A stretch of 64,000 nt of DNA from an uncultured Planctomycetales bacterium (GTDB lineage Bacteria; Omnitrophota; Gorgyraeia; Zapsychrales; Fredricksoniimonadaceae). The notes below the pieces were generated by a model. It made no database searches and was not told the DNA's origin. It worked only from the letters and a program-made list of their open reading frames with translations. The first letter of the stretch is position 1, and every line of letters begins with the position of its first letter. This document shows, piece after piece, positions 27,001-50,428 of the stretch. The stretch is taken from assembly GCA_964520655.1 (NCBI GenBank), contig CAZFNI010000010.1, forward strand, positions 371 to 64,370, given 5' to 3'. The position numbers and the translations under genes were made by a program.

Positions 27001-30000
27001 ACAGTATTGTGAATATTCCGGATGCTAAAAGCATTCCGGTCCAGATCTTCAGGGCGTATCACGAGGTCACCCAGCCGAATTCATTTGCTGTTCAACGTAT
27101 CGGCAGCACGCTGGTTGTGTTGATGCCTAAAGAAGCCGGCGCCAAACATTTTGACCGCTTCATCAGATTTGTCCGTGAGAACGAAAATGCTGCGTTTGCC
27201 GGCAATACACTGACGGTCCAGCAAGTGGTGAATTATCTAAATGACAGGAATGTTCAGAATTACAAACAGGCATTGACCAATGAAGAACAGGAGTTCTTGA
27301 AGATCCTGATGGTGCCGGGCCGGGAAATGATCCGGCAGGATGAAGGATTCAAATGGGATGTCATTGTGCCGGGTAACGTGGTCATGGTTGCGGTTGACAG
27401 GAATAGTCCGCAGATGGCTTCGAAACAGATCGTTCCGGCCGTCGCTCTTGTTTCAAAATTGTATCAGAACGAACAAAAAGGCGAAGCGGCCGACAGCGCC
27501 ATGTCTTCAACTGTTAGGGCTGTATTTGCGTCCTTGTTAGCTTCAGCTTCTTTGACCGCAAGTACGCCAAGTACGACAGCGGTGACAGATAAAAATGTCC
27601 CAGCGTCTGACGTTAAGGCTGATCAGGCCAATGAACAGGCCATGATCACGACGGGAACGCGCACGGTTGAACCTAAAAAGGTTGAACGCCGTGATGAAGG
27701 TGCCGGCGGCGGCGCGGGTGGTGGTACAGGCAGTGCCGCAAGAGTGGAATTGGTCAAAGCCTTAACGGCAGGATCACCGGCAGCAGCGGCAAGCATCATG
27801 ACCGCTAACAGCAGTCTCTCGGTTGAGGGCGTCAGGGCGGTTGAGAGCGTCGTTGCCCAAGTCATGAGGACGCCGGCATTCCAGACGGCATTAAACGATG
27901 TGCGCAAGGCTCAGGTGGAAAAAGGTGATGTTCCAGCGGCAGCGAATGTTCTTTTAAAGGTCTTTGCCCAGGAAAGCACCAGCGTCATCGACGCACGGAC
28001 AACGCGTACTGTCAGAACTGCGCAGGCTGCCCCAACACCAGTGACAGCCGCTGTACATCAAAAAGACGCGAATAATGTGGCGGCGATCCTCACGGGAACA
28101 ACACCCAACAGCATTGCTTCTCTGAAAGCCGAAGAAGATATCCCGGCGATCACTAAATATAGAGAAGGCGTCCAAGCACAGCAGGCGATCGACAACATGG
28201 TCTCTGAACCGAGCGTATTGTCTTCAGACGCTTTTGTCCGCGGCAATTTCGATCAGATCACGGATGTTGTGACCAAGGGTCTTAAAGGTACGACCAAAGA
28301 AAAGACAGCGAATATCATTAAAGCCCGTCTGCAAGATGTGTACAGCATGCCGGATGTTGTCCGTCAGTGGAATGTGATCAAGACTCAAACGCCTTCGGCT
28401 AAAGAAAGAGAAGTCTTCAATGCATTTGTCATGCAGAAGATGTCAGCCTTGCAGCCGAGTTTTGCTAAAGCGGTGATCTTGGCGTATGCGCAAAGCGTCG
28501 AGAATATGACACGAACAAGTGAGCATGTCGGTACGGATATCATGGGCGTTATCGACGCTGTTTTCACCCGTCCGGATCAGCTCATAGAAAAGCAAGCCGC
28601 TCAAGCTGCTGCCCAGACCTACTTTGATCGCAGGGAAAATATTGAAAAGAATCAATACTATAAGAACAAGGTCGCGGCTGATCCATCCTACGCGATTGGT
28701 GAATGGGCAGCCACATTAAGAGATATTGCCACGCGCATGCCGGATACGATCGTGGTGGAAGCGCCGAAGGCCGTCGCAGCGCCTGTTGTAGAGGCTGTTG
28801 CTCCTGTTGCGCAGCAAGTAACGGCTCTAGTAAAAACGGTTGTTCCTGTTCCAGTGGTTGTCCCGAATGCCTCAACGTTAGTTGATGGCAGACAACAAGC
28901 CGTGCCGGCAAAGATGGTCAAGCCCGCTGCCAACAATGATTCCTGGAAAAATAGAGTAGTCGACGCCTTAGAGAAAGTCTCACCGAGGGTTGCCGCGTTG
29001 GGCGCGGCCATTTTGCTTGGTTCCACACCAGTGGCCCAAAAGCAATTAAGTGGCACACAGGCTGTCGGTTCTGCTCCAGCGGTCGCGGTCATGCATCAAG
29101 GGCAAGAGGCACAGCTGCCAACCCTGACCGCAATGCCGATCCCTTCCACCAGCATGCCGGCAGCGTCAACAGTCAATAATGGTCCGGCGGCGGTTGTTAA
29201 TGCTTCAGGCAGCGTCGCGCCTCAAGCGAAATCCATTGCCGTGGTCCACAGCGTTGAATTGACCCGGGATGTTTCACAAGCTATTGCGAAATTACCGCAG
29301 GCGTTAAAAGAAGAAGTGTTCAGTAACCCCAGTGGCAGCGGTGCGATCGTCAGTGACCGTGTGTATCAAGTCATCAAGCCGGCCGTGGAGAAAAAAGATC
29401 TCAGTTCCCGTTTAAGCGCCTCTATAGCGGAAGCCAGCAATGCCGCAGCCGGGGCGCTGCTCATGGTCTTAGGCGGACTTGGGGTAGGCAAAAGACGCGA
29501 ACAGGCCCAAACAAAAGCACCGCAGCAAGCAGAGATCAAGACAAAGCCTGTGACCGCTTCCTTAAATGAACAGATCGCGGCCGTCAAGAATGCGGTCGCC
29601 CTGCACGCCAAGACATTACCGGATGCTGATCCAGCCAGGGTCAAGGCCGAACGTCTGGTGAAAGTATTAGACACCATGCGTTCTGTCGTGATCCCGGGCG
29701 CCGCCAATGAAGCTGTCATCAAACAGTTCGCCGCAACCGAGATCCCCGCGATCTCTGAAGATATTGTTGCCGCCTTGCCGGCCAAGGATCAAGAGACATT
29801 CAGATCCGTGGTGCAGTTCAGAGCTGCAGAGAAAGCCGAATATGAACGTCAGGAGCAGATGAAAGTTGAAACTGCCGCGAAGAAAGAACAGCAGGATATC
29901 CGCGATGGGCGTCTGCAAGCTCAGACGCAACGCGTGATGCAGGCGGGTGCTGATATAACATCGAAGGATCTGGTGGCGGCCGGGATCGCTGAAACAACAG

Positions 30001-33000
30001 TTGGCGCATCCGTCGTGAAGTGGCAGGATACACCGGATGTGAGAAATGCCCTTGAGGTCATCAAGGCAGCAGGGGAAGATATTTCGGATGTCACTTATGT
30101 CAAGGGTGAATACACGGCTCCGCTAAAACCATCAGCCCAGATCGCGATCGTGCAGTTGGCTACGGCGTTTGACCAGACAATTGAGCAGGCGGCGCAAGGG
30201 CGGCCTGTTTTGGCGGCAACAGCTCAGCAGATCAGGAACCTGGCGCGCGTGGCTATGGTGGCCGGCTATAAGGCAGAAGAACCTGATTATGTGGATCATG
30301 TGATCGCCCTCATGCCGCAAATTGAGCAGATCGAACGCGCGGTCTTTGCCTTACCGCAGGCACAGCTGGTTTTGAAGGTTGTGGAATATAATGGAAAGCC
30401 GGCGGATATTTCTTCCGCCCGCATCGTTGTTGACCGTTTAAAGCAATTTGAAACCACAGGCCAGATCGAGCCCGCCCAGGTCAAAGCGGTCTTAAATGTC
30501 GCGCCGAAATTAACGAAAGCCCAGCTGGATGACATGTTGAATTTACGCCAGGTCAGCCAGATCGCGTATCAGACGGTTCGCCAGGAAATGGCCATCTTAA
30601 AGGGCAGCCTCCCGGCAAAAGAGATCATTCAAAACAGAATTGCACAGTTGCTGCCGGCGTCGGTTAGAGGCGCGGCAGATATTAGCCGCAGCATTGCCGA
30701 TGCTGTTGTTGCCCCAGGTGCCGATCAGGTGGAATTGCCGGGCATCAGCGAAGCTGAACACAAGGTCATGACCGCGATCATTAATGATCCGCAGATCAGC
30801 GCGATCGGTTCTTTGGCAAGCGTGATGGATATGGGCGCAAAGAAAGCCGAAGGTTCCGTCGATCAGGCCCAGGTTTCTACAGCCATAAAAGTAATGGCCG
30901 CAGCCGCGGCTGCATCAACGGTGCTGTCGATCCCCAGCGCAACATCTCAACGGGAAATCAATCAGGTCTCACCGGCTGTTGTGGCGCCGGCACCCGTTAA
31001 GATCAGAGAGGTTGTGGCTCCGGTGATGGTGGACACAATGGTCCCGCAGGTGATCGCGCCGACCCAGACAAGATTTGACGTCAGCACGCCGGTCATTGAC
31101 AGGTTCAAGGGAGGGGTTGTCATCGTCGCTGTTGATGTGACAACAGGCAAACTAAGCGGCATTGCGCAAGTTGTCCCCGGCATTGACGGGCAAGTGGAAT
31201 CCTTCAAGAAAAGCCTTCCGAATGCCGAGAGCGTAAAATATGAAGTCTTCTATTCAGGTCCGCGTCCAAACTTTGTCAGCACGGTGATCAATAAGCTGGA
31301 TATCTTAAAGTCAGAAGCCAGACAAGTTGGCGGCGCATCTGCTCCGGCCCAGTTCATGGTGAAGGCCAATGAACAAGGGCTGTATGTTGTGAACTCTAGA
31401 AATGATAAGATCCATGAATACCGCTACAGCAGCAAAGGTCTGGAAAAAGCCGATCAAGCCATGGCTGCGGTCGCAGAAGTGGTTATAGAGAAAGGGATCG
31501 CGCCGGAAATATTGGCCAGGGGAGGCGCGGAATTAACCGCTGCATTAGGATCTATCGGGTTGACCGGGAATGAATTAGATGCCGTGAAGTTATCCGTTAA
31601 TCAAGTCAATCAGGACCGTCCGGCTGTTACGGCCGCGGTACAAAGAATTGAAACCGCCCGTGCTACCGGCGATACCCAAGCGGTCACGGCCGCTGTTGGG
31701 GCCTTAAATGAGATGTATCAAGGGAAGGTCCCAGAGGCTGTGTTAACAGCGCCGACGGTGCGCGGCATTCGTCTGGATGACGGTACCAGTGTCCCGGCGG
31801 TGTATAATGCCCAGCAAAAAGCCTATATCGCGGTTGCCCAAACACCTAAAGCACGCATCGCGTTGAATGCCGGCATCATCGAAACGACCTATCGCATTGT
31901 GCCGGCAGCTAAAGGCGACTCAAAACCGGAAGCTGTGATGTACACCTTGGAATCAACGCCAGCCGTCAACAAGGCCTATGCCCAGGTGATCGCGTCGTTA
32001 ACGGATCAAGAAAGAGTACAGTTGCCTCCAAGTACAGCCAAAACGATCAAGGCGACCCCACAATTGTTAGGTCGTATCTTCAATGTTCAGATCGCCAATG
32101 CTGTTAATGAACTGATCGCCGGAAAATCCTTCGAGAGCGTCAATGACGGCCGTATGGGGGCATTGCTCAATCAAGCGTTGGCCTTGGCTCAGGAAAACAA
32201 TGATACCGAAACTGTTGCCAAGATCAATGAACTTCAACCTCGCATTATTTTACTGCAAAAAGCGTACAGCGAATTAAATGCCCAAAGCGCGTTAGCCCTC
32301 AAAGTCGCATTATTGAGCAAAGATCCTCGAACGATCGCCCAGGCCCAGGCGGTTGTCGACCAATTGACCCAAATGAACGCCGACGGCCGCTACAGCAAAG
32401 ATGTGTTGACGCAATTGAAAGATGTTCAATTCCCGAAGATCAGTAAAGAAATGCTGGCTGTGTCGGTTAAGCTCAATGGGGCCAGCGCCTATACGGTTGT
32501 GATGTCCGCATTGCGCGGCCTGCTTGGGTTAAAGACTAAGGGCACGGATGCCCAGGATGAAGAAGCCGTCAGTCAGGCCATGAAAGATCCCGGCAAGAAT
32601 GACCAGATCACCGCGGCTATTGAAGAAGAATTAAGATCACTTGGCTTGACCGAGGGCATTAGCGATATTGCCATCGCCGTTGTCCAAAGCGGTAATCTGA
32701 AATTACTGCAAGGCATGACCAAAGAAGAAGCGCGTGCCTATGAAAAGATGATGCGCAGCCCGAATAATCAAGCGGTGGTCACTATTCTGGATTTCTTCGG
32801 ATTCAAGGGTGACGAGATCTTCGCCGGTGATAAAGCGATGGCAGTAAAGCCGCAGGAAAAAACGGCTGCCAGTATGCGCGAGATGTTCAATTTAGGCGCG
32901 GTAGGCAAATACATTGCCCAAGCCATAGGCCAGGGATACAAGACCAACAAGACCAGCGTGATCGCTTTTGATCCGGATGATCAAGCACAAATACGCGCCC

Positions 33001-36000
33001 TGAAAGACATGGTCATCACGATGGGCCGTAAACCGCTGGACATCACCTCGGCCAATATCACCAAGGCGGCAACCGATCCTAAGGCGTATGTGTTCTTAGT
33101 GCCCAATAACAAGGATATCCGGCGTGAACTGGCCAATGATCCAGAGGCCATGAAGGCGCTGGAATTGATCACCGATGTCCATGATAACAACGTCCGCACG
33201 GGAAGCGAGCTGTTCGCCGCGCAGGAAAAACTCATTAAAACGAATTATGTCGATCATTTGACCGGGATCGGCACGCAGGCGGAACTCAAACGCAGCGTCC
33301 AGGACATGATCAAGACGATGATGATGGGGACTTCATTAAGGTCCCGCGTCGCCCCGGCCAAAGAACCAACAGAGCGCAATGTTGCCTTCACTTATATCAT
33401 GTTCGACGGCAATAAATTCGGTTCGACCAATGTCCTCTTCGGGTTTGAGAATGGGGATGCGGTACTGGCCAAATTAGGCGAGATCGTTCGCGGCAATTCC
33501 CGTGAATCAGATATCTTGGTCCGCTGGGCGGGGGATGAATTCGTGATCGTTTTGCCGCAAGCCGGCAGAGAAGAAGCGGCCGCCTATTTGACCAAATTGA
33601 CTAAGGCCATTAACGAAGCCTCGTTCGTGCCGGAAGTCTTTGGCCGCAGCGCGGTATTAGAGAGATTACAGGCGAAACAGAATGATGACCTCTCCGAAGG
33701 CGACCAGGAAAAGATCCGTACCGGTTTGATCGCCCAGCTGAAGATGCAGAATCCCGGCAAGGAAGTCCCGGCGGATATGACCACTGAAATGGCTGTCAGG
33801 GCGATCAAGGCAGATCAATACGCCTTTGACCGCTGGATCGTTTCCATCACCGCCGGCGCAGCGGTGGTCAATAAATCTATTGAAGAGATGAAAGACAAAG
33901 ATCCAGAAAGCCTGCGACTGGAAGTGGAAAAAATGGCCGATACCGCTCTTGAAGGCGCTAAAGGCAACGGCAAAAGCTTTGATATCGTCAAAGACGGACA
34001 GCATTTTGTTTCCAATGAACCAACGGTGCTGGCGTTTGAGTCCAAAGAAGAACCTGTCGCGTATGCCGACCGCGTGGCTGGCCGCGGTGTGCTCGAAGGG
34101 TTAATGGATGAATCCATCCGCTGGGCGGAGAAGAATCATACCGTTCCTGTGCTGACCTATACTACAGGCGATCAGCTGGCAGGCATTAAAACATATTTGG
34201 CTAAGGAACATCCGGATAAAAAAGTTCGGAGCATCTATGATGCGAATTCGATCGGCGCGCTGGTCAATAATCCAGCGCTGTCACAGCAAGTGATCGTCAT
34301 CCCTGAGACGATGAAATTCAATTATCTAAAAGATTCTCCAGAGCTGCTGGCTGATTTTGAACGCATCACCGGTGTGCATGATGCCAAACTAACCGCTGAG
34401 GCCTGGTATGAATCTCAGCGCCGGGAGATCGATACTCCGGGGACAGACTTGTTGACAGGCTTGAAGAATAATGCCGGATTGAATCAAGCTGCCAGACAAT
34501 CCTTGAAGGAAATGGGCCGTATTATCGAGGCCGGGACCCCGGCCCGCATGGCCGCGGTTGTTGTCACCCTGCGTGATTTTAAGGCCGTCAATGACCTCTT
34601 CGGACATCATGCCGGCGATGCAATTTTAACGCTGGCCGGAAATTCTTTGAAAGCAGCGTCGCGCTTGACGGACAGCGAGGGACGTTTGGGCGGCGATAAA
34701 TTTGCCGCGATCCTGCCGAATACGGGAGAAGAAGGGATTGGCGCTTATGTCAGCCATGTGGTTGAACGTTTTAAGAAAGATCAGACACAGGATGCAGAAG
34801 TCGCCAGGATCTTAAGCAGAGACAATGTGGCTGACGTGTTGACACATATCTTGATGGATCCAACCACGACGGAGGAGAAAAAGATCAAGGTCTTGGGATG
34901 GGTGAAGACGCAGTTGAAGATCCAGAACCCCGGCAAAGAAGAGAAGATTGATGCGATTACAAAACTTTGGGATGCGATGAATGTGATCGACGAAAATAGC
35001 GACTTGACGTTCGACCGCTGGGTGATTGAATTAACGGCGGGCGCAAGCGGGATGACCCAGGTATTGCCGCAGAAGATCACCGATAAAGACGGCCGCCAGA
35101 TCTATGAGAAATTGATCACGGAAGCAAAGACCGCTGTTGCCCAGGCACAGAAAACAGGGGAGGTCGTAAAGCTTGGCCAATTTGATATCGCCTTAGAGAA
35201 AGCTCAGGCCGCCAAGCAGGAAAGCAGCGACAAGGCCCAGATCGCACGGGAAAAAGCACAGGCGGCCTCAGAAAAAGCTATCGAGAATGCCCGTGAGGCC
35301 CGCGATAGAGCGCAGATGGCTGCATATAATTTCAGTGCCCTGCGCAGCGCGGCAGTCCGTGAAGGCAAGTCCTACTTTAGTATATTGAAGGATGCTGTTT
35401 CAAACGGCCGTTTTGCCCAGAAGGCTAAGGATTACGGGGAAAATATCCGCGCCAAGATCTTGGATAATTCCTCCATCGCCAGGATCTTAGCGGCGATCGA
35501 GCAGCATAGGGCCTTTTTGAATGACCACCTGCAGGCCGTCAGAGGCCAGGTATTTAAGAAAGACGGCCAGGTCGGTTCTTCCGTCCAGACTAGCGCCGAT
35601 TCTTCGCAGGATCCCAATGACGCCACATGGTTTGAATATTTGATCAAGAAGATCAAGGATGCCGCCGATCAGGTGGTCTTTATCCTGGCGCGCCGCACCG
35701 CTTCATTCTTTAAGCCGGTATTCACCGCGGCCAATAGTTTCGCCGAGAACGTGGATTATGCGGCCTTAAAGGGCACCCGCGACATTGTCCGGGGCGTGCT
35801 GGCCTTCTTTGATCTGAATTCTGACGCCAAGATCGTTGACGTTTTTGCCGGCATCATTTCCCGTAATAAGGAAGCTTTGGCCAAGGCCAAGAACTTGCGC
35901 ACGATGCTCGTTGAGATCATTGAGATCGTCAAGATCGGGGACAATGACAACGAGGAGCTGCAGGAAGTTCCGGCCGATGCCGCGCAGATCGCCAACACTT

Positions 36001-39000
36001 TGGCCGATCAGATCATCGCTAAGTCCGGTATTAATTCATCCGCCTCCGCGGAAGATAATATGATCTTGGCCGTAGATCGTCAGACATTCAATGCCTACAA
36101 AGCGCTGCATTTGGAATTAATGGCCGCGGCAAGCAATCCGGCAGAGAAAGATGAAGCCATCCAAGCTTCCACGCAATGGTTCATGCGCTGGAAGATCAGC
36201 CCGCTCAATGCCCAGATGATCGTTGCCGGTTTAAATAACGGTAAAGGATTCACAGATCTTAAATCCTTATTGATGATCGATAAGAAGGATTCTTACTATA
36301 AGGCCAAGGATATCCAGCCGGGCCACAGCGTTGAAGGTGTGGAAGAAGTTGAAGAAGTTGAAGAAGTCCCGGCGGCAGTGCAGCCTGCGGATGTTCCTCA
36401 AGGCCCGTCTTACGCCGATCAATTCAATACGGAATACGGCGCGGAAGAGACCCAGACGATCGATGTCGAACCAATGGCGCCGCCAGCACCAGCCGACCGC
36501 AACAATATCAATGATTTCGATAATGAATTGCCGGTCATGCCGCAAGCGCCGCTGCCGCCAGCACCGAATAATATTCTGCCTAAAGTCGGTCCTTTATCCG
36601 ACGCCACAAATGATGTGCAATATGATAATGTCATTGAACTCTCGGCCGTGATGGCTGCGGGCAGGAGAAACACCGCGAAGTTAGAAGGCGAAGGCGGCAT
36701 TGCCACCGATGCCATGCCGGCGACCGGAACAGGCGACGAAGCGATGACATCTGTCGATCCCAACGATCCTTTGAAAGATAAGAAAGCTGTATTGCCCCAG
36801 ACCAATAAAAGCGGCAAAATGCCGCTGGATGAAGGCGGCACCACCGCTCCCATGAGGACCCCGACACTGCCAGGACCCATCGGCAACCCTGTGTCTGTGC
36901 CAGGCACAGCTGCGGCGCAGCCCACAGGTCCAGTGGCTGCCAATAATCCATTAGAACCAGCAGCACCTGAGGCGCCCGCGCCCAACACAACACCGATGGC
37001 TCAAAATAGTCCTTCGGCCCAAAATACTCAGGCACGGGTTGCGGCACCAACACCTTCTCCTGTACCAACTCCGTCCGCGGCAGGCGGAGCCCCGGCTGTA
37101 CCGCGCGCATTGACTGGCCCGCAAACGCCGCTGGGAATAACCTATAATCCGAGTGCTGTTGGATCCCAGGCTGAAGCGCCGCCTCCAGGGGCCTCACAGA
37201 CAACAAGAACAGCTCCTGCTGAACCGGTCAGTGAGCCAATACCATTACAATCACCTATTCCAGTGCCCGCGCAACCTTCTGGGGCTGGGTCAGGCTTAGT
37301 ACCGATCGTTTATGCGATCAGGCAATTGAGATATCAAGTCACAGAACCAGTTCCTACCGGTTCAAGATTAAGGGGGTATAATCCGTTTGCCAGAGTGCTT
37401 TTAAAAACGGCGCCGGATCACGCCCCGGGTCGTAACCCATCTGTCAGCGATTTCTCCGATCGCTCCGACAGAAGAAATGTAGGAAATGGAGAAAATGTAC
37501 AAACGTTTGCAGTACAAGCAGTTGCAGCAAAATCAGTAGTTTCTGTAAAATTAGCAGAAAATGACTTAGCGCAAGCTATGTCATCAAGCAAAAGCAGCAC
37601 AAAAGCAGTACAAGCAGCAAATCGTAGCGCCGAAGTAGCAGCAAGTGTCAACGCAGTACAGGTAGTACGTAGTGTTGCACAAAGCAGTAGTAGTAACAAT
37701 GTCCAAACTGGTAATAAGTCCTCCCTTAGGGGTAGGATGGCAGCGCAAGTAGCAGAAGCAAGAGCTGTAGTGTCAATGGACATTATGGCGGAAACACCTA
37801 GATCTGACAGGACTGTTTATAATAACAGTGCCGCTGGTAATAGTAATAGCAGCAGAGTACATATAGGAAATACTGCATCAAGCCTACGTGCAAGAAGTGT
37901 GCGCATAGACTCTGGGCACGGTATAGATAGTGTAGGTAGACTGTCTAGTGCTAGGGCTATATACACAGATACTGCCATAGGTGTGAGTGCTCGAGATTTG
38001 CCAACCGGGCTTGCCGGGGATGGTCTGCGTATGGGGACTGTTTCTGGAGGTTCAAGAAGTGTTGGCTTCTATTCGTTATTGTCAAAACGAGCACTGACAT
38101 TCAGCCAAACTAATCTCACACAAGCACAATTAAGTATCATCCGTTTCATCCATCAAAAGGGGAGGTACGTATGGTTACCGAACTTAAAATTAACCACATT
38201 ATCCGCGTCCGCGACGACGACTCCAGGATCGCAACCGCACGCGACGCAAACAACAAGATCCACATTTACCGCATCAGCAAACTGGGCATCATCACCAAAC
38301 ATAACGGGCTTAAATCCACATGGGATCCTGTTGAGGCCAGGATCAAGGAAAGTCTCCGCATTCTTATTGACGCCGCAAGCAAATTCGGCCGCAGTTACAA
38401 GATCGACCACGTCTGATCCATCACTCAATTCTAATAATGTTTTTGATCATGCGCGTATTTGGCTAGCCAAACAAAGCCAGGGCCGCTTTGTGTTTGACAG
38501 GGCACAGCGCGCATCCTGGAAAGACGCGCTCCAATCTATCCGCAGAGATCTATGGCAATACATCGCTGTTGCGGTGGGGGGCGTGATCGGTTCTGCGGTG
38601 ACGGTTGTCGCCATAGAAAAGGGATGGATCTCGCCGCGGGCCATCGAGATCATCCGCGTCAATACCTGGATTGTTTTAGGCGTATATGCATTTAAGGTAT
38701 TGATCGACCGCGTTTTTGGTAAGAACGATCGATCAGCTTCTTCCAAAGAAGAAGGCACAAAGAACGACGAAGACAAGAAGATATTGTCCGTCGCCTTGGT
38801 TTTAGGCACCGGGGCGGCCTTGATGTCTGTTTTAGGATTTACACCTGACGCCGAGGCGGCGCAGGCGCATTTAACACAACACAACGGAGGTGCACTATGG
38901 TTAAGATCACCAACATCATCGACATTCCCAGCACTAACAGCCACATTGCCACGGCCAGGGATGAACGCAACAAGGAGCACATCTTCTGCATTACCGATGA

Positions 39001-42000
39001 CGGTCAGGTCTTTAAACGCAAAGGCCGCAGTAAATGGGAAGAACTTACGGGTGAGCGCGCCAAACGCGTTATCTATACCACCTACGAAGAGTTCTGCTCC
39101 AGCGGCGAGAAAAGACACAGCGTCGAGGGCTATGTCGGCGTTCCGCTCTTTATGGCTGCAAAATAATCTGCGTGATGTGGGTGGCATGACCTCGCCCCTG
39201 TTAGGAACAGGGGCCGGCCTGGGAATTGTTCTGTTGGGGCTTGGTTTAAGAGCGCGCCGTCTCAGTGGCGCGCTTGGGGCAGGCGGATATTGGGGCAATG
39301 TCAGTGACGACCTGGAGAAACAGATCAGGTCCGTTCTACCCCGGGCCAGGGACATTAAAGGCCGTCGCCTGCCGGTGGAATTCAACGGCGTGCCTGTTCA
39401 GCACAAGTATTTCGAAAAAGAGTTTTTTGAGAAAAAAGATGTTTCATTTATCTGGGCAGCTAAGAGCCGAGGGAAACTGGTCATTTATTTTTCTTCATAT
39501 GGGCTCTTTACGCAATTGACCCGAGAGTTCCCCCATGAAAAGGAGTTAGAGAAAGCGCTCGAGATGGTTTATTACCACGAGATCAGGGAACAATATTATT
39601 TATCACGCGGGTGGGGGCGCGGCGACAGCCACCGGTTTGCCGTGACTGGCACCCGTATCCAGTATCTGCGTGAGAAGGACATTCTCTCTAGAATAGAATC
39701 CCTGATCGATCCTCTGCCAGCAGCAGCTAAGGACCATGTGCGCGTCCACATTGGCAAGAATGACGCCGAGGAGCTGGATCTAGGCGCTGCGCGTGCCGAT
39801 GCGATCGTACGGCAGCAAAAGGGACGAATCAATATAGCTGTCGGCGGCGGGGAAACAGTCCCGGCACTCCTGGATGCCTGGGTGAGGTTGATCGCAGAGA
39901 ATCTGCCGCTCTACAAAAGCATCATCTCCAGGATGCATGTGTTCATGGTGTATGAATCCAGGAACAGCAACACGCATCAGGTGGTGATTGATAGATTCAT
40001 CACCCCGCTTAAGGCCATGGGCATCAGCGTTGACAGCAAACAGATCCATGCCGTAAATTTACAAAACGCGCATACGCTTGAGGAATACAAAAAGATCGCG
40101 AAGGATTACACCATCGCCATGAGGAATTCGTTAGGTCCCAAGGACCAGTTCGATCTGATCTTAAGCGGGGTTGGCCAGCACGGTGAATTCGCCGGTTTTG
40201 AATCCAATTCACCGGTCATTTATGCCGCCAAGCCGGTGATGATCGCCTTTGAGCGGCGTGACGGTGTTTTGATGACCTCACTGACACCGGATGTGTTCCG
40301 TAAGGCCAGGAACATTATCCTGGTATTGATCGGGCCCCATAAGCGCGGAGCGCTGCTGGATATGATCGCCCCCGAAGGGTCCATCGGTCAGTCCCCGGCC
40401 AGGGTGATCCATGAACAGTACTGGGGCCAGACGGACATTTACACCGATCGTTCTTCCAAGCGCTGGCCGCAAAAAGAATTTTTATTGGATGATGGGACTG
40501 TATTTTTCGCGGATGTGCATGAGGGGCTTAAAGGATCGGATGTGGTCATTTTTATTCCTGGCTTTCATGACCATAATTATGACCAGCAGTTCCGCGGCCT
40601 GCCATATGCCGAGACCATCGTTGTGCGCCGCGACGATCTGCCGGTGAGATTAGGCAAAGATGAGGTGATGGCGTATTACGCACAAAAGATCAAGGCGGTC
40701 ATCAAATATTATCAGGACCAAGGCCGCCGGATCAAAGTGGTGACGCATTCTGACGGGAATGAATTCTTTGGATATTTCCTGGCGCATGCCGCCATGGATA
40801 TTCAGCCGATCGCCGCGCTTGACCGCATCAGCCCATGGAATGCGGCGGATATCGCTTTTGTTATTGAGCGGTTTGCTCAACATAAGCTGGGCCCCGCGGC
40901 TTTTGGGATCGGTTATGTCTCCCCATTGCTGGCATCGATCATGAGCTCGTCCTGGGGATGGTTGCCGATGCTTGGGCCCGCGGCCAATGAAATGCTGCGC
41001 TCATTCATCGCTTCGAACATGGATGCCTTCAGCAGCCTGTTTGACCAGGAGGATGCCACGTTAAGCGGTCAGCTGCGCCGTGATGACCTGGAGTCATCCA
41101 TGGAGATCCCGCTGGAATTGCTGTTCGCGGAATTGTATGCCGTGTCTCATCAAGACAAGGAAGTCACGACCAAGGCACAGGAACGTCTGATCGCCTGGGG
41201 AACGTTCGTGACCACGATCGCGCCTAAAGAGGACAATATTAGCAATGTCAAACGCATCGCGGAGGAACATCAACGATTTATCAGCATGAAAGGGAAAGGG
41301 GAACTTGTTGAATTATCAATCGATCCTAAAGGCGGCAGTTCATTTACGCAGGCCCATTTTATTCACCGTTTTGCGGCGCGGGTGAATGCCTTGATCGCCA
41401 GATTCCCCGGCGATGAAACGATCGTGCCTTCTGCGGAGACAGCGTTTGAAGGGATACAGGCAGCCTTAAGCATATCAAGAGAGAAGGGCCATACATTACT
41501 GCGTATTCATTTTGGTCAGGATGAGATCGACGTGCGGGCGCTTGCGGCTAATGTGGAAGATGCACAGATATATATTGATGATCTCACGACCCACCAAAGG
41601 GTTGTCAATTACACCATTGACCAAACCCGCCGGTATTCAAGCTCGGTGACGCTGCGTTTTAAGGACGGTGAATTACCCGCGGCGTTCTGGATCAAGATCG
41701 GGCAGGGGATCGAGAACACCATCGTGACAAGAGGGGCGGTCGATAAGAAGCTTCGTCCGTATTCATTCTTTGTGACTAAGGATGCCCATGGTCAGCCGTT
41801 CCCGCAAAGTCCAAGAACCGCGGAAGAAGCGTATGGGCTGATGCAGTCATATCGGATATCTGACGATGAAACCCAGGACCATGCCATCAGCGCGTCAGGA
41901 CAGATACTGGCAAGCACGGTCAATAATCATTTTGCTGCCAGGTTTATCCGGCATGCCGATCTGATCCAAAAGATCAACCGCTATTTAGGCCGCGGCGACC

Positions 42001-45000
42001 CGTTGGGAGCGCCGCTGGCGGTGCGCGAAAAAGGTCGGGTAAAATGGTTTGTGGAACCGGACCGTCTGGTGACCATATTATCGCAAGAACTTTCCGAATC
42101 AGAGAGAATAAGCGTTGTTGAAGCGCTTTCCGTTGTCCGCAGCTTTCTCCTTCATGAGTCACGACCGACGGAGAAAGAGGGTATTGCTGCCCAGATCACT
42201 GGGTTTATCCAGGAAGAAGAGATATCCAGAACACGTGACGCTTATGCGACGATCCAGGCGGCCGCGCGTCAGGGCGGTATCAAGACCCTGCAGCAGCTGG
42301 AGAAAAAATATCGCAAAGACCAAACCCTGATGTTCAGATTTGAACACCGTACCGCAGAAAATGTCATTATTTTGTACCGCTGGCCAACGCTCTTTGACGT
42401 ACCGGAAGTCCATAAGGTTCACAATGATATTTGGTTCAAATTCCCCAAAGAGCAGATGTCGCTTTTGCAGGTATACGCTCAGATCCAGAATTATCAGCGC
42501 GGGCATGTTGTGGCGGAAGTTTTTGATTTAAATGTCCCTGGCCGGCAGTACATTTACGCGCCGATCTGGAGCGTGCGGGTCAATGTGTCTCGTGATCTGG
42601 CCCGTCGACTGATGTTTTCTGATGTGGCAGGAACGATGTTTCAAACAGTAGATGCCTTGACCAATGACAAGACGCTTGACGGCGTCGTATCCGTTGACGG
42701 CCAATGGACGTTTAATTATGCCACGGGTCTACCGACAACCAAAGTCGCCAATCAGGACGCGGTTGCCGGGTATCTTGTCAAGGGCAAGCCGCTCAAAGGT
42801 ATTGATGATGGGTTGGTCATGACCCAGGCGTACCAGCAGCACCGCGACAGGATACGGTTCTTAAGAACATACAGCCCGATCACCGCGCTTGGCCTGCATT
42901 GGAAAAAAGGCGCGTTCAAATTTAATTTTGGTGAGATTCCCGATGGAAGATACCCTGGGGCGCATGCGATCATCATGGCCTACCCCTGGCATGATTTTAT
43001 GACCATTGGCAAAGGGCGCTTCTCTGAGAAGCTTTCCAGGGTAGTGATCGTGCCTTCGTATCGTTTTGGCATTGACCGCATCGCTTCACCGGTCGATCCG
43101 GATAAGGAAGAATTGGTCATTCGTGTCGCGGTTCCCGGGTTCAAGCAGGCCTTGCCGCGCAATAACCCGCTGCGCCGTCCTTTTGTGAAGGTTAACAAGG
43201 ATCTGATCCTCAGGAATGGGAATAATCATTACCGTGTTCCTGAGATCTTTAACATGACCGCGGTCGGACATGCCAAAGCATTGCTTAAACGGTATTTAGG
43301 GTTGGATACCATCACCTTGGCATCACTGCCTGAGCACAACGGCATGAAGCTCACCGTCGCTGTATTAGGTGACCATGAGACCCGCTCATTTAAACCGTGG
43401 ATCAATTTTGGGGTGATCAAAGCTCTGCTTAAGAACCGTCAGATCAATACGGTGGTCACCGCAACGACAGGAAATCAGGGTATCGCGCTGGCCTGGGCCG
43501 TGCGCATGCTGGCTAAGACCATGAAGAGGGAAGATCTGAAAGTGATCGTCTATGTCGGTGTTAATACGTCAGAAGCGAAGATCGCGCGCATGCGGGAGTT
43601 CGGCGCCATCGTCATTGGGGATCCTTCCCGCAACCCGGATGTTGTTTTCGAGAATTATGAAGCAGCTTATCAGGCGGCGCTTAAATTCTCCCAGATCCCC
43701 GAGATCAAGGAAAAGACATATTTTGTGGAACATGCCAACCGTGCGGCGATCTTGGGGTATGCCGCATTAGGATCAAGGGTTTTGGAGATCTTGCGTTCAC
43801 AGGATAACGCAGATCATTTGGCTATTATTGTACCCGTCGGGGCCGGAGGTCTGGCCAGCGGCTTTGCAGTTGCGTCACGATTGGAGAAAGATCCGACCAA
43901 GGTGTATATAGTCCAGACAACACGGACAAAGCATGCGTACATCTCGTTGTTGACCGGTAAGAGGGTCGTATTTGCCATGCCTCAAAGTCAAGAGTACGAC
44001 GAGAACGGCATCGACACTAAGAGTCTTGAGCCAATGGCATTAAAGACACTGCGCACTACCGCTGATGGTTTGGCGTTAGTTGACCCGACGCTGATACCTC
44101 AGACGATCGCATATTATCGCGCCCAGGGGATCATTGCTGAGGGGGCCGCGGTATTGCCATATTTGGCGCTGGAGGCCTTGAAGGAAGAATTGGCAACCAA
44201 AGGCATCACCCATGTTCTTTTGGTCGCAACCGGCAGCAATGTCAGCGATGCTGCGCAGAGTTCTCGGGACATCATGAGGCATGAAAGGGCGGCGGCACAT
44301 CGTTTGTACCAGGCCACAAGGAATTTGGAAAAGAAGCGCGCCAAGAACGGGCTGATGCCGATCGTCTCTGTTGGGGCGGCCACGTTTGAGCAGGGCAGGA
44401 GCGTGCATACGGCTTTCAATGATTTTAGCGTGCACGCTGAGGGGAATCTTGTTTTTGATGTGTTGGCCAGTCAGGTTAAGAAGGCACATCCAGCACTTCA
44501 AGAGCCATTAGACCGTCTCTATGCGCTAGTTTCAATGAGGAAGCTGTCCCGTGATCAGACGTCATTCAAACGCCTGGTCAAAATATCCGCGCAATTGGGC
44601 CATCCCATGAAGGGGCTGGATGTGATCGTGACATATGAACCTTGCCCGAGCTGCTTTAATCTCCTTTTCTCCGTCGGTGTTCGCAAGGTATTTTATATCG
44701 ACGCGCATCCTAATGATGAGTTCGCGCAAAAGCGCGGGCATGCCGGCCTTATGAAGGTACAGTTGGAAAGCTTGGCCAGGAAAAGCTTGATGAACCAAAG
44801 GTATAAGCACTTAGTGGCGCAGGACCAGATGGCATTTAGCGATGATCAGCGGGCAGCGCAGGATGTCTTTGCCAATTCATTCAGGCAATGGTTCAAAGAT
44901 CATTTGAATGCCAGCATTGCCGATGTCAGGGGGATGAAAGAACAAATCGGGAATGTTAGCGGCGCAATGTTTTGGAAGATGCCGCGCGGTGACAAGGGGA

Positions 45001-48000
45001 TGGCCTCTCTGAAGCCTGGAGTGCATTCTGGGTCATTGTCCTGGATCGATGGCTTACGATCGAATATCCGCATTCTCCACAATTGGTCCGCCGAGGAACA
45101 GATATTTGCGGCTGATCTATACCGCAGTCAGCCGGAAGTAAAGAAAGCATTTTTGAAAAATGCGCGCATCACCATGGATCTGGAAGCGTATTTAAATTCG
45201 AAAGGAATGCTCCCATTGGGGGTCATTGCCCGCCGTGAGAGCATTAGAACCAAAGTCAAGGATCTGGACCTGGGGTGGCGATGGCTTATCCGAACCGACA
45301 GTCATGAGAATGCAGAAGATGTTATTTTTAGAGTATTGACCCAGGAGCTTCCGGAGGATCAGCAGTTGACGCCGCGTGAAGCGTTGATGTTCATCGCCCA
45401 GGTCAAAGCACATGAAGAAGGAAAAAGCGAAGCGAAAGGCATTGTCCGTCAATACAGAGACATTAAGGCCCGCAATGCTGTTGAACCGAAATTGCGCATT
45501 GATCCGGTGTGGGCCAAGTCGGAGCAGATTAAGGATAGGATCAGGAAGCTTATGAATGTTCTGTGGCATGTGATCATAGGGATGGCATTTATTGCGCCGG
45601 TGATTAATTCAGAACTTTGGATCGTGGCTGCAGTGTATACGGCAGGCATGTGGCTTGCGGCTGCTTTTTGGATATTGATGTTATATTTCTCTGAGGTCCT
45701 GATGGTTATTGGCTGGGGGATCCTGGGGCTGTTTGTCTCTCCGGTGCAAGCCAAGATGGAGTTTGTTAACAGGATATTGACCGCGGCTTTTGCGGCAGCG
45801 ACCGGGATCGCGGGCTATCAGGTGTGGAATATGCCCAACGACGCCAGATCATGGCTTGTTTTGATATTTTTGGGGATCTTTACACATCGGAATCTTTCGG
45901 TGGATATCACCATCAAGCAGGATAATGATGCGCTGGACCTCACCCCCGTCTATGACTTAAGGTCAGGCAAAGAACGCAGCAACATCACCACCGCCTTTGA
46001 TAAGACCGAGGGGATCACGCTCCCCTGGATATACGGATTTAGTCCACAAGGCGGTCATACCGACGAGGACATCAACACGGCCTTACAGTATCTTAAGCGT
46101 ACAGCGCCCCGGAAAGCCTTGTTGCTTAAAACGCTGGTGGACGAAAATCGTTTGACTTTTGGGGCTGACGAAGCGTTCCACTCGGCCTGGGTGACTAAGA
46201 ATGGCCAGCAATACTTGTTGATAAGCGTGATGGAGTCCGAGGACAAGGCCAGGGCTCTGGTGCGTGCGATCGCCGGAAAAGAAGCGGTTTCAGGCTTTGA
46301 CCAGCTTAAGCGTGTAAAACAGACGATCTCCTCATCGGGAGGCGCCTTGGTCAATATCAGCAGCGGCGGGGCCATTTTAGATGTTGTCGCGGCCTATTAT
46401 GAGAACACAGATGCCGGGAAATTCAGCCGTTTCTGGTCGCTGGTTGACCAGAAGCAGATCTATATAAGCCGGCAGGTAGAGCAAACCCGATGGGAGGGCG
46501 ATGAGCTGCTGGTATCATTGTCCAATGATAAAGAACTGTCGCATGAGATCGTGGGGGCCATGGCTGTCCAAGGCGAAACAGCGCAGGGAGAGATCGATCG
46601 ATTGAGGCGGTGGCTTGAGGATCACACATCTGGCAAGGGACTAATGGCAAGTTGGGGCATGTCGGATCAGCAGATCGCTCAATTATCTTCCTGGGGCAAA
46701 GAGCAGCTGTTGAAGATATTCAAGATCGCCTGGCCGGAAGACATGGTGTTAAGTCTGCCAGCTGGGACTACGGGGAATTTGATCTGCTTTGAGCCAGTAC
46801 TCTATAAGATCAACCGTCCAGTGTTTAGCGGTGACCTGCTCTTGGTCCAAATGGCGGTCCTGGCTCAACGCAGGCGGCTGACAGGTATTATTGACGAGAA
46901 GGCGCGTTATGCCGCGGCGCTGTTGACTACGGCAGTTCCTTATTTATTAGACCTGCGTCGCGATGAGGATAGAAAGCAGGCGCTGATCACAGCCCTGGGG
47001 CCTGGGAATATGGGAGAGCAGGATACTCTGGCGACTTTTTACCGTCGGGTGTTGAACGATACGGCTTTGCAGAGGCCGGAAGATCTTCTTGTGCATCTTG
47101 CCGGAATTTTTGACTTGGATGAGGATTCCGTTGGAATGATCGGGACTGTTGACCATGCCCAGGCATCTGTAGTGCCGGGGGATAGTTTTATTGATCCCGC
47201 GCGCAGTGAGCCGCCGCTGGCCGTCTCGCATCAACCTTTGGTCATGAAGATCGCGCAGGAGCATATCCATACACATATGACCCCGTCACATTTGGATATG
47301 ATACGCGACGAGGATGGGCACGTTCAAGAGGATGCCTATACGGGAATGCGCAGGGATATTGAGAGATTCTTAAGGCAGATCGGGGATCTGCGGGCCCTGC
47401 GCATTTTTCAGGGAACGGTCATCCTCCCGTTTACGCCGGGTCTTCAGGACAGCTTGCAGGAAACGTTTTGGGGTGCATACACATTCCAGGGGTTAAACGG
47501 GACCTGGCAGAGAAACGCGGAAACATATCCAGTCATCATTGCCAATGATGCCGAATCGATCGTCCATGAGCTGTATGCTTTAAGCGGCAGGGAACATCAT
47601 CTGGCGCATGCCCATGAACAGGCGGAATATAAGGCTAAAATATTCACACAATGGCTGGAGTCACATAATGATTTTAATATTTTTTATTCCGGGCCCAAGC
47701 CGCATCGCATGGGCGCTTTAGGGTTGCTGAAAAAGATCATCCCGAGAATGGCGTCCGCATTTGCCGCCCAAGGTCAAGAGGCAAGGATTAATGTACTTTC
47801 CTGGGGAGGGGTGAGGCACCTGGAGCTTCCGGTGAGCACTGAGGGGCTGAGGGTCCTGATGTATGTGCTTGAACACAACCGCATGAATCTTAGTCAGTGG
47901 AACAATGTCCGTCTAACCCCGGATAATTTTAAGATCACTGTTGTTGCCGACCGCTTGGACACGCTCGATGCCAAAGCGTTTAAGATACACCTGAACCATT

Positions 48001-49246: not shown

Positions 49247-49984
49247 TTGGGCCGTGGCATAATCCCTCCCATGGAATTATCATTAAAAGAACTGCGTCAG
49301 AAATTACGTTCACATGCCAACCCGGCTAAAGCAGAGGTCTATAAACGTTTCTTTAAGACAGGCAAAGGCCAATACGGCCACGGGGACCGGTTTATCGGAC
49401 TGACCGTTCCTCTTCAGCGTTCGCTTGCCAAACAGTTCGTGCATTTAGGTCTAACGGATATTGACGCGCTGCTGCAAAGCCCTATCCACGAGGAGCGGTT
49501 GACGGCGCTGCTGATCTTGGTGGCGCAGTATAAGAAAGCCCCCCAGCGCCAGCGGAAGGTTATCTTTGAATTCTATTTGAAGAGATCCGCCCGGGTCAAT
49601 AATTGGGACCTGGTGGACCTAAGCGCGTATCATATCGTCGGGGCGCATTTGGAAGGCCAGCCGCATGATATTCTTTTCAAGCTGGCCAGGTCGAAGAATT
49701 TATGGAAGCGGCGCATCGCGATCGTGGCGAGTTTTCATAATATCACCCGCGGTAAAAGCGAGCCGACGCTTATTTTGGCCGCGATGCTGCTCAAAGACAA
49801 AGAAGAGTTGATCCATAAGGCTGTTGGCTGGATGTTGCGCGAGGTGGGCAAACGGGTGGGGCGGGATGTTCTGGAAGATTTCCTGTGCCGCAATTATAAG
49901 CGCATGCCCCGGGTGATGCTGCGTTACGCCATCGAACGCCTGCCGCTGGAAAGACGCATAGCCTACCTGAAAGCGGAGTTGTAA
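49247..49984 (+). CDS. DNA alkylation repair enzyme (AlkD/AlkC-like HEAT-repeat DNA glycosylase); probable true start ATG 49271
   Basis: PAKAEVYKRFFKTGKGQYGHGDRFIGLTVPLQRSLAKQF and HEERLTALLILVAQY match the DNA_alkylation family signature (..YFKTG.GQYG.GD.F.G...P..R.LA). Confidence 0.7.
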   Translation: MGRGIIPPMELSLKELRQKLRSHANPAKAEVYKRFFKTGKGQYGHGDRFIGLTVPLQRSLAKQFVHLGLTDIDALLQSPIHEERLTALLILVAQYKKAPQRQRKVIFEFYLKRSARVNNWDLVDLSAYHIVGAHLEGQPHDILFKLARSKNLWKRRIAIVASFHNITRGKSEPTLILAAMLLKDKEELIHKAVGWMLREVGKRVGRDVLEDFLCRNYKRMPRVMLRYAIERLPLERRIAYLKAEL

Positions 49985-50011: not shown

Positions 50012-50428
50012 ATGTATAATACGTTCATGATGAAATTTTTACTGATCATTCTTGTTGTTGCGGCTGGGGCGGGCTGTGCTTTTAATGAGACGTATAATCC
50101 TGTTGCTGCCTCGACCTCCGGCACTTTTGAGCTTAATCAAAGCGCGTTGAAAAAAGTGACGCTTGGCATGCTCCAACCCCAGGTCCACCAGCTGATGGGG
50201 GAGACGATCATTATCGGATATAATTATGCCGATGATGTTCACGGGACGGCCACGCCGTTGACCTTGCAGAATCCTTACAAGACATCTGTGGCGGCGGATG
50301 GGTGTGTGGTGGAATATTATGCCACATCCGTGGTTGTTCCCGACGGTGTTGTCAGCGACGCGGAGCTTTTGCCGCTAAAATTCTGTCAGGGAAAGCTTGT
50401 CGCCAAAGGATGGGATAGCGCCAAGTGA
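50012..50428 (+). CDS. BamE/SmpA-OmlA-like small lipoprotein
   Basis: Signal peptide MKFLLIILVVAAGAGC with a lipobox-like Cys. KKVTLGMLQPQVHQLMGE matches the BamE motif (..GMT..QV...LG.P). Confidence 0.5.
   Translation: MYNTFMMKFLLIILVVAAGAGCAFNETYNPVAASTSGTFELNQSALKKVTLGMLQPQVHQLMGETIIIGYNYADDVHGTATPLTLQNPYKTSVAADGCVVEYYATSVVVPDGVVSDAELLPLKFCQGKLVAKGWDSAK

Follow-up and report, generated by a model that had tools for sequence, protein, structure and literature searches.

How a single reading frame of 49 kb comes to change its codon usage abruptly in its interior, and whether the deviating stretch was acquired from elsewhere, is the question raised by a giant gene in the window, i.e., the 64,000-nucleotide stretch of DNA analyzed here. 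A preliminary description based on the letters alone had proposed either an inserted coding cassette or a disordered, hypervariable linker. The host frame (positions 186 to 49187, forward strand, like all features below) comprises 16,333 codons without an internal stop and, as a single ORF, is longer than the 20 kb that characterizes Omnitrophota-type giant genes. Near the N terminus of its product, Pfam detected a Peptidase_C39 domain (PF03412; amino acids 120 to 184, E = 2.3e-7, exceeding the gathering score); further modules are two GGDEF domains, Glucosamine_iso, PALP, and a deaminase-like domain, together with a weak HD match. GGGKT (13185) and DEAH (13464) motifs are also visible, and in a check for a divergent SecA DEAD-like helicase domain, Pfam returned no match in 12786 to 14600. 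The host was assigned to the Omnitrophota, as every named homologue of the neighboring glmS at 63 to 70% identity is from Candidatus Omnitrophica/Omnitrophota and two relatives of the nested genes described below, L008 and L009, are located in Omnitrophota MAGs. As in the Omnitrophota giant genes portrayed in three reports (10.1101/2023.11.21.568195; PMC10066038; 10.64898/2026.06.07.730766), the ORF far exceeds 20 kb, has its C39 domain at the N terminus, and combines GGDEF domains with tiled enzyme modules and numerous hydrophobic helices; term searches of these reports found no mention of internal out-of-frame genes, a junction module, or compositional islands. A literature search for overlapping genes in Omnitrophota returned nothing relevant.

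Sliding-window GC3 and RSCU analyses confirmed the sharp change in codon style. The island (37476 to 38045) is a low-complexity stretch of the giant frame rich in Ser, Ala, Val, Arg, and Asn, with rare A/T-ending codons and a GC3 of 0.27 to 0.35, and the remaining two forward frames are closed over it. The same range holds for the giant ORF at 37.1 to 38.0 kb, compared with 0.55 to 0.70 in the flanks. In 300-nt windows of the giant frame, GC3 was 0.29 to 0.34 across 37236 to 37836, 0.55 to 0.71 upstream (35586 to 36186), and 0.57 to 0.69 downstream (from 39186), and the 600-nt window at 37386 (GC3 0.30) represents the minimum of 162 windows over the ORF (mean 0.51, standard deviation 0.086). 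The onset placed at about 37470 has to be moved upstream, with GC3 already declining from about 36.9 kb on, within a Pro-rich block. Another GC3-poor block lies at 5886 to 9486 (GC3 0.35), and the island is therefore extreme but not unique. Along the whole giant ORF, GC3 forms a mosaic of blocks.

Within 37470 to 38169, GCA accounts for 59% of Ala codons, GTA for 56% of Val, AGT for 35% of Ser, ATA for 56% of Ile, and CAA for 92% of Gln, and RSCU correlates at -0.26 with the downstream 10 kb and at -0.01 with 19 to 36 kb. The reported Ala/Val/Ser-rich low complexity with a short internal repeat was found as well: the island consists of 16% Ser, 14% Ala, 11% Val, and 9% Arg, and the 13-mer GCAGTACAAGCAG is present at 37509 and 37605. 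Two accompanying statements did not hold. The DNA is not AT-rich (GC of 0.44 to 0.48), and the stop-free frame, considered very unlikely by chance, is expected here because the stretch sits within an ORF of 16,333 codons. Among strains, 21 SNP sites were counted in 868 nt of the island and 53 in 6116 nt downstream; read in the giant frame, the 21 island sites comprise 8 synonymous and 13 non-synonymous ones. The island evolves under relaxed constraint. Strain contigs are collinear and without indels over 37178 to 45282 (strain contig L023 spans 37178 to 39229), so that of the suggested hypervariable linker, low complexity and relaxed constraint stand, while length variation does not.

The island is part of an ordered series of elements. 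It follows a Pro/Ala/Thr-rich low-complexity block of the giant frame (36369 to 37313; GC1 and GC2 up to 0.7) and is followed by a box, GGSRSVGFYSLLSKRALTFSQTNLTQAQLSIIRFIHQKGRYVW (38046 to 38174), whose counterparts in L007, L008, and L009 end in ..TFI[HQ]..GG..W. Next come the two small ORFs with ribosome-binding sites that had been noticed at the end of the island. Both are real; what had been missed is that they are nested out of frame and that the giant ORF continues through them to 49187. ORF-A (38171 to 38416, 81 amino acids) lies in the -1 frame relative to the giant ORF, and its Shine-Dalgarno sequence GGAGG (38161 to 38165) is 5 nt from the ATG. ORF-B (38897 to 39166, 89 amino acids), a paralogue in the same -1 frame, has its GGAGG, read as Gly-Gly by the giant frame, at 38886 to 38890, 6 nt from the ATG. 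Over ORF-A, the giant frame encodes a Ser/Thr/Pro/Ala-rich peptide without conservation. Between the two ORFs, the giant-frame segment X (38417 to 38896) encodes three hydrophobic helices (38550 to 38615, 38661 to 38717, and 38781 to 38840), and no start codon with its own ribosome-binding site was found in it. At an ATG 7 codons past the ORF-B stop, the giant frame begins a transmembrane-like helix with basic residues, MTSPLLGTGAGLGIVLLGLGLRARR (39186 to 39260), with the first hydrophobic 19-residue window 9 codons beyond that stop; with this helix begins the next segment, whose first module is Glucosamine_iso. In our best reading, an Omnitrophota-type giant gene would carry a conserved junction module at 36.4 to 39.3 kb, located at a segment boundary, with the putative giant-frame order Pro-rich spacer, Ser/Ala/Val-rich island, box (Gly-Gly-x-x-Trp), unconstrained linker, and transmembrane helix.

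Several lines of evidence indicate that ORF-A and ORF-B are genes. Each is a complete same-strand ORF with its own Shine-Dalgarno sequence and ATG (38171 and 38897), and start, stop, and ribosome-binding site are conserved in other organisms. Their -1-frame products are paralogues (blastp E = 1e-10), and the peptides that the giant frame encodes over them show no similarity to each other. GGAGG is under-represented in the giant ORF (33 observed versus 76 expected), and GGAGG followed by ATG after 4 to 9 nt occurs at two sites in the 49 kb, exclusively those of ORF-A and ORF-B. These are also the only places in the 49 kb where another frame outscores the giant frame in codon likelihood, and their codons are GC3-rich (0.66), like the rest of the genome. 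The start-site windows are among the least RNA-structured ones (97th percentile in the window, 99th in L008 and L012, and 70th in L009). In every comparison of homologues, amino acid identity in the small frame exceeds that in the giant frame, and substitutions follow the order small-frame position 3 > 1 > 2 in most comparisons, position 3 being the most variable in all but one. L023 was retrieved via ORF-A and is therefore an unbiased sample for ORF-B; its three SNPs in ORF-B are all synonymous in the small frame and non-synonymous in the giant frame. These comparisons show the small frame to be the one under protein-level purifying selection.

A search of 1.84 billion sequences with an A+B profile yielded 21 other small proteins of 75 to 102 amino acids (E of 1e-15 to 6e-4) and no long protein carrying the small domain in frame; nested ORFs read from DNA encode 71 to 95 amino acids. 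AlphaFold predicted the small protein with a pLDDT of 80.5 and a pTM of 0.69, and the model of ORF-B contains five beta strands and a C-terminal helix. No significant match of the small protein to a Pfam model or to a solved or predicted structure was detected; Pfam found nothing in ORF-A or ORF-B, and the family alignment gave scattered single-member matches (best E of 0.0086). The best reading is a family of conserved, previously undescribed, and, according to the models, folded proteins, with about 80 to 95 amino acids encoded by each small gene. All 13 members examined, from 12 loci, are nested and start with an ATG at optimal spacing from a Shine-Dalgarno sequence, and nesting is tandem in the window (A+B) and in L012 (two copies). 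Family contexts are mostly short contigs of 0.5 to 2 kb, with several kb of host ORF in the window, L008, L009, and L012 only; across these contexts, the whole family appears to exist solely in nested form.

The conserved stop-free giant frame over both small ORFs had escaped the first reading of the locus. The +1 phase of the nested ORF, which is the giant phase, is free of stops between contig ends in 13 of 13 members (12 loci); in two Omnitrophota MAG contigs among these loci, identified by tblastn, this phase stays open for at least 3542 and at least 6736 codons. In 1141 codons, the giant frame has 0 stops and a control frame 101, and the equivalent phase of ordinary genes of the window shows 0.049 stops per codon. 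Synonymous resampling with host codon usage gave a summed log10 P of -27.9 (n = 9 members). Under the most conservative null, for which codon usage was pooled over the family itself, the 13 members jointly gave P = 5e-4; per gene, P was 0.43 to 0.74 and most single-gene significance was lost, so that the case is carried by the joint result and by the contrast to host and housekeeping usage. A choice of pyrimidine-ending codons in the small genes keeps the giant frame stop-free in every member examined. The substitutions fit selection on the small frame, with the giant frame over the nested genes just kept open.

The elements upstream of the nested genes recur in other loci. In L008, GC3 falls to 0.33 to 0.37 at -1016 to -566 (flanks of 0.55 to 0.68), and the dip before the nested gene is weaker in L009 and also in the metagenome contig L012, over the length that this contig covers. 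The upstream segments share high GC2, low GC3, and G-poor third positions. A Pro-rich followed by a Ser/Ala/Val-rich segment precedes the nested gene in L008 and, less clearly, in L009 and L012; L008 and L009 carry a Pro-rich block of the window's kind, and amino acids 1068 to 1363 of the L008 giant frame align to 37179 to 38063 of the window (E = 3e-4, weak homology). The order Pro-rich block, low-complexity segment, short box, and Gly-Gly-x-x-Trp is shared, and a transmembrane helix usually lies downstream in the giant frame.

This distribution bears on the idea that the island, ORF-A, segment X, and ORF-B were horizontally acquired as a cassette and placed in frame into an older giant gene. 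The sharp shift in codon use relative to both flanks and the GC3-block mosaic of the ORF would agree with such an event. However, distant Omnitrophota giant ORFs possess the module with a matching compositional signature, the finding that the preliminary description itself had set against an insertion; the strains are collinear in the region, and the codons of the small ORFs are genome-like. Flanking direct repeats, proposed as a check, are absent around the region, Rfam gave no match there, and Pfam over 36000 to 40400 found no mobility or foreign domain, its sole match being the host's Glucosamine_iso downstream. We consider acquisition highly improbable and likewise discarded a mobile element, given the lack of repeats and mobility genes and the presence of the module in distant giant ORFs. 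The odd codon use would instead be a property of this type of spacer, arising from amino acid composition and relaxed codon selection. That the small ORFs are chance or annotation artifacts, with the giant frame alone being real, would be compatible with its openness throughout and with the lack of a credible Pfam match for the nested ORFs or the family alignment. This explanation has a practically negligible probability in view of a family conserved across at least 21 other clusters with E down to 1e-15, a substitution pattern that fits small-frame coding, a confident fold prediction, and the coincidence of ORF-A and ORF-B with the only two Shine-Dalgarno-plus-ATG sites and the only other-frame wins in codon likelihood.

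Most probably, the locus represents a boundary between segments of giant proteins at which conserved dual-coding genes are nested. A linker would be written over one or two small -1-frame genes, each with a strong Shine-Dalgarno sequence, an ATG, and its own stop. Free ribosomes would initiate internally at these starts, yielding the small protein as a separate product, and ribosomes in the giant frame would read through the overlap, producing a throw-away linker; the upstream and downstream segments would therefore remain one polypeptide, with segment X lacking its own start. The small protein probably works with the membrane-anchored segment downstream of it. Programmed recoding would instead include the small ORF in the giant protein as a recoded domain, through a -1 slip near GGAGG/ATG and either termination at its stop or a +1 return. 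Shine-Dalgarno-like sequences promote frameshifting in dnaX and prfB, and an in-frame X_XXY_YYZ heptamer, A_AAG_GGG (38156 to 38162), lies just 5' of ORF-A. Yet the heptamer is missing at ORF-B and missing or out of phase in other loci, all 13 ATGs are optimally spaced, the start region is unstructured in most long loci, and ribosomes leaving the giant frame would make the openness seen in 13 of 13 members unnecessary. Recoding is thus very unlikely, and without a conserved in-frame slippery heptamer, a programmed -1 frameshift site was rejected. The nested ORFs could also serve mainly to recruit, at a strong internal site, ribosomes that, after the small stop, re-initiate on the transmembrane-helix segment, so that the downstream giant part could be made independently of the 12,600 upstream codons. 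ATG 39186 lies 19 nt past the ORF-B stop at the start of the helix, gene callers pick it as start on broken contigs, and ATG, GTG, or TTG occurs 4 to 16 codons beyond the last nested stop in 8 loci. By our estimate, though, chance alone would supply such codons in about 70% of cases, and more often in Leu/Val-rich helices; ORF-A and L012a lack one within 25 to 60 codons, and neither the conservation of sequence and fold of the small protein nor the open giant frame is explained. Such a re-loading role, compatible with nested dual-coding genes, is unlikely.

Bacteria rarely have long overlapping genes on the same strand, and few of these have been characterized. In phage lambda Rz/Rz1 and other viral embedded genes, a complete gene lies out of frame within another, and the products cooperate at the envelope; lambda, however, has a compact genome under size pressure, whereas the nested genes here reside in a 49-kb host gene on a bacterial chromosome. 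Other parallels are comS in srfAB of Bacillus subtilis and gndA in gnd of E. coli, small same-strand genes in another frame that lie wholly within a larger gene and have their own ribosome-binding site and start, comS also being located in a very large multi-module gene. There, a conserved domain is specified by the host frame, onto which the younger nested ORF (36 to 46 amino acids) was overprinted. The polarity here is the opposite, with the nested frame conserved and predicted to be folded (71 to 99 amino acids) and the host frame just open. Also unlike comS and gndA, the arrangement is present in every family member examined, in divergent hosts between which the giant proteins cannot otherwise be aligned, and can be tandem (A+B; L012). 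Products of nested genes are thought to act in the process of the host gene (PMC11230408).

An embedded gene that is constrained within a host frame that is just open would be an unusual form of overlap and would imply selection on the continuity of the giant reading frame itself. The nested genes may mark at least one boundary between giant-protein segments and name candidate partner proteins hidden from current annotation, as the small ORFs are called only where a contig is too short for an intact giant ORF. The family profile could serve as a simple marker for such junctions in thousands of unannotated giant ORFs. In addition, the locus illustrates that horizontal transfer is not a necessary inference from a sharp intragenic codon-usage island.

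A more far-reaching scenario, which we regard as possible if doubtful, is a programmed subunit boundary of giant polyproteins that arose by reverse overprinting. An older free-standing small gene would have been read through when its neighbors fused into the giant ORF. Identical nucleotides would then encode the small protein, its ribosome entry site, and a giant-frame Gly-Gly that is cut by the protein's own N-terminal C39 peptidase, after which come a disposable linker and the next segment's signal-anchor helix; the small protein would be a dedicated partner of the membrane segment, as an assembly factor or lectin-like subunit. That giant proteins might be cleaved into pieces by C39 domains has been suggested by West-Roberts et al. 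(10.1101/2023.11.21.568195). With regard to C39 double-glycine processing, the giant protein here starts with such a domain, and the residues before Gly-Gly have no clear match to the leader consensus. Gly-Gly (GGA GGT) stands in the giant frame exactly at the nested Shine-Dalgarno sequence in 10 of 13 members (all except ORF-A, L012a, and L022), because GGAGG in that phase automatically reads so.

Within the giant ORF (186..49187, plus strand, 16,333 stop-free codons), a compositional island at 37476..38045 precedes two small ORFs nested in the -1 frame. The preliminary description had reported an abrupt switch in codon style here, and giant-frame GC3 indeed falls from 0.55-0.71 to 0.27-0.35 at ~37.1-38.0 kb and recovers afterwards. 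The 600-nt window at 37386 has the lowest GC3 among 162 along the giant ORF. Codon comparison of 37470-38169 revealed a preference for GCA, GTA, AGT, ATA, CAA, and AGA, with usage uncorrelated to that of the flanks (r = -0.26 and -0.01), and the repeated 13-mer occurs twice in the island as described. The drop assigned to ~37470 is real, but its onset lies earlier, near 36.9 kb inside the Pro-rich block. Likewise, the island is the GC3 minimum of the giant ORF but shares its low GC3 with a further block at 5.9-9.5 kb, and its DNA, previously called AT rich, has a GC content of 0.44-0.48.

The proposal that the island is a horizontally inserted cassette did not hold, since the same segment is present in other giant ORFs. 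In addition, no flanking direct repeats were found around it; apart from three weak micro-repeats, the repeat search returned nothing beyond short matches due to chance, with no insertion signature. The giant ORF continues past the island and the small ORFs. The window and two loci from Omnitrophota metagenome-assembled genomes (MAGs), L008 and L009, share a common order: the Pro-rich block is followed by a low-complexity block rich in Ser/Ala/Val/Gly/Arg/Asn, then by a short box and, at the nested start, a ...GG..W motif. The GC2-high, GC3-low, G3-poor signature is also found in L008, which aligns weakly with window positions 37179-38063 (E = 3e-4), and is weaker in L009 and the metagenome contig L012. 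Where a locus extends far enough, a transmembrane-like helix starts 0-9 codons past the last nested stop. Strains of the source organism are collinear across the region, and their diversity is raised but mostly point-wise. The island carries 8 synonymous versus 13 non-synonymous SNPs in the giant frame, a pattern that agrees with relaxed selection on a low-complexity linker.

Several other accounts of the island were rejected. Hidden coding is not apparent, as the other two forward frames are filled with stops and antisense ORFs look like low-complexity artefacts. An unstructured standby region for ribosomes spanning the entire island does not match the unusual lack of structure, which is confined to the ~120 nt directly upstream of the nested start. 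Ambush stops upstream in the nested frame, enriched in the window and L008, show no enrichment in L009 and thus are not a conserved feature. A suspected structural variant at 37513, the shared start of three Logan contigs, was traced to strain SNPs clustered at 37503, 37506, and 37512. Scanning 36-40 kb with Rfam detected no RNA family. The Pro-rich block opens with a tandem repeat of GTTGAAGAA in about 4 copies (36330-36367) that encodes VEEVEEVEEV.

The small ORFs, ORF-A (38171..38416, plus strand, 81 amino acids) and ORF-B (38897..39166, plus strand, 89 amino acids), encode paralogous proteins (E = 1e-10), while the same DNA translated in the giant frame shows no similarity between the two. 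In a codon-likelihood scan of the whole 49 kb, the giant frame is outscored by another frame only at these two ORFs. Their starts are also the only two sites in the giant ORF with GGAGG followed by 4-9 nt and ATG. GGAGG occurs 33 times on the coding strand of the giant ORF versus ~76 times expected from base composition (~2.3-fold depletion), which is consistent with avoidance of internal ribosome-binding sites throughout, save at the two nested genes.

A profile of both proteins, searched against 1.84 billion representative proteins, retrieved 21 further small proteins of 75-102 amino acids and no long protein with the family domain in frame. The family has no Pfam match. Its AlphaFold model comprises five beta strands and a helix (pLDDT 80.5), and the search for structural neighbors of the model gave none that was significant. 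The top Foldseek matches, all weak, include WD40 proteins and fucose-lectin propellers. Tectonin-like propeller-blade repeats in the unrelated subtilisin-domain protein P0019 (951 amino acids) match the family profile weakly. The small protein might represent a single propeller-blade-like unit. Neither ORF-B alone against a word-indexed database, nor 39186-40400 against genome and viral sequences, nor JGI metagenome scans with family alignments gave a match, and a protein query spanning 35286-40400 found no relatives, its candidate list probably being filled by low-complexity matches. The family is badly under-represented in protein databases because the giant ORF masks the small ORFs on long contigs. 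Among the retrieved loci L001-L027, gene callers report small ORFs almost only on contigs <2 kb or where contigs begin near them.

The nested arrangement recurs across loci. In L008 and L009, both identified by tblastn, the small ORF lies within a plus-strand frame that is open over the entire fetched locus (at least 3542 and at least 6736 codons, respectively), in the same phase relative to the host as in the window. Eight further members were traced to contigs (L007, L010, L012 with two tandem copies, L016, L017-19, L020, L021, and L022). Without exception, the 13 nested ORFs have a +1 phase that is stop-free across the entire contig, as well as a Shine-Dalgarno sequence, mostly GGAGG with purine-rich variants in L008, one L012 copy (L012a), and L022. 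Ten of the 13 ORFs read from DNA start with ATGGT, over which the giant frame reads TGG (Trp); in the three others it reads TGY (Cys). A as the first base of the nested second codon is excluded because the giant frame would then read TGA. Met-Val starts are found in 18 of 22 aligned family members (A2), a strong preference for Val.

Synonymous resampling under host codon usage yielded per-gene P values of 3e-2 to <5e-5 for the open giant frame (summed log10 of -27.9 for nine members). When the null is instead pooled codon usage of the family itself, which absorbs much of the open-frame signal, the joint P for all 13 is still 5e-4. Over the 13 nested ORFs (1141 codons), the third frame contains 101 stops and the giant frame 0; ordinary genes of the window contain 0.049 stops per codon in the matching phase. 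Third positions of the nine nested ORFs measured are 67-85% pyrimidine versus ~52% in the hosts. Codon choice is the means by which the giant frame stays open.

Substitutions follow the small frame. Position 3 of this frame is the most variable in all but one of the homologue comparisons, with the order 3 > 1 > 2 in most, and identity over the same columns is higher in the small than in the giant frame in every comparison. An unbiased sample of ORF-B is provided by L023, as this locus was retrieved through ORF-A; its three SNPs are all synonymous in ORF-B and all non-synonymous in the giant frame. Contigs fetched via ORF-B are biased by construction, and one of these nevertheless has nine silent differences in 270 nt. 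Over the overlap, the giant-frame peptide lacks conservation even in its composition, being Ser/Thr/Pro/Ala rich when nested codons preferentially end in C and hydrophobic when they preferentially end in T. The host frame is therefore kept open but otherwise unconstrained. These data demonstrate that the DNA is dual coding, that this property is conserved, and in which direction selection acts.

Internal initiation would yield the small proteins, while ribosomes in the giant frame would read through the overlap. Around the nested starts, predicted RNA structure is among the lowest in the window, L008, and L012, and less clearly so in L009. Segment X (38417..38896), between ORF-A and ORF-B, has no start of its own. 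Frameshifting into the nested genes could be suspected from an in-frame A_AAG_GGG of the -1 slippery type at 38156-38162, directly before ORF-A and overlapping its Shine-Dalgarno sequence. However, this route is unlikely because the heptamer is the only slippery one and is not conserved at ORF-B or the other loci, and because frameshifting would make an open host frame needless. Ribosomes may also re-initiate at the downstream helix.

Nested out-of-frame genes are already known, such as comS in srfA and gndA in gnd (PMC11230408). In those cases, a short gene overprints a conserved domain of its host; in the present case, conservation resides in the embedded gene, whose family appears to be nested without exception, and a giant gene serves as host. 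Our search of the available literature for such an arrangement found nothing, and term searches of three Omnitrophota giant-gene papers (bioRxiv 10.1101/2023.11.21.568195, PMC10066038, and 10.64898/2026.06.07.730766) revealed no mention of it.

Pfam matches in the giant ORF comprise Peptidase_C39 near the N terminus, two GGDEF domains, Glucosamine_iso, a domain of PLP-dependent enzymes, a deaminase-like region, and a weakly matching HD domain, an architecture that fits published Omnitrophota giant genes. The ordinary chromosomal genes trmB, glmS, rsmI, pyrB, and pyrC lie 3' of it. All named homologues of glmS (63-70% identity) belong to Candidatus Omnitrophota, and the glmS of the closest relative (85% identity) lies on a 1.34-Mb contig. 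GC3 along the giant ORF forms a mosaic (~0.35 at 5886-9486, 0.4-0.5 up to 19 kb, then 0.5-0.67), and segments of the ORF may vary in age or origin. At ~29440-29500 and 39186-39260, a hydrophobic helix is followed by KRR or RARR, resembling C-terminal or signal anchors; once-separate membrane proteins that have since been joined would fit such motifs.

The first gene 3' of the giant ORF (49247-49984) encodes a DNA_alkylation repair protein and not PilZ, a gene for which lies downstream of many giant genes according to West-Roberts et al. (2023, bioRxiv 10.1101/2023.11.21.568195). Two plus-strand ORFs of 309 amino acids (50425-51354 and 51252-52181) overlap by ~100 nt, and the TrmB match of the former is limited to its first ~165 residues. 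Farther downstream, two adjacent paralogous genes on the minus strand (55868-57247 and 57266-58648) encode proteins of ~460 amino acids, each with a C-terminal Peptidase_S74 (endosialidase chaperone) domain, as is typical of phage tail fibers and self-cleaving adhesins.
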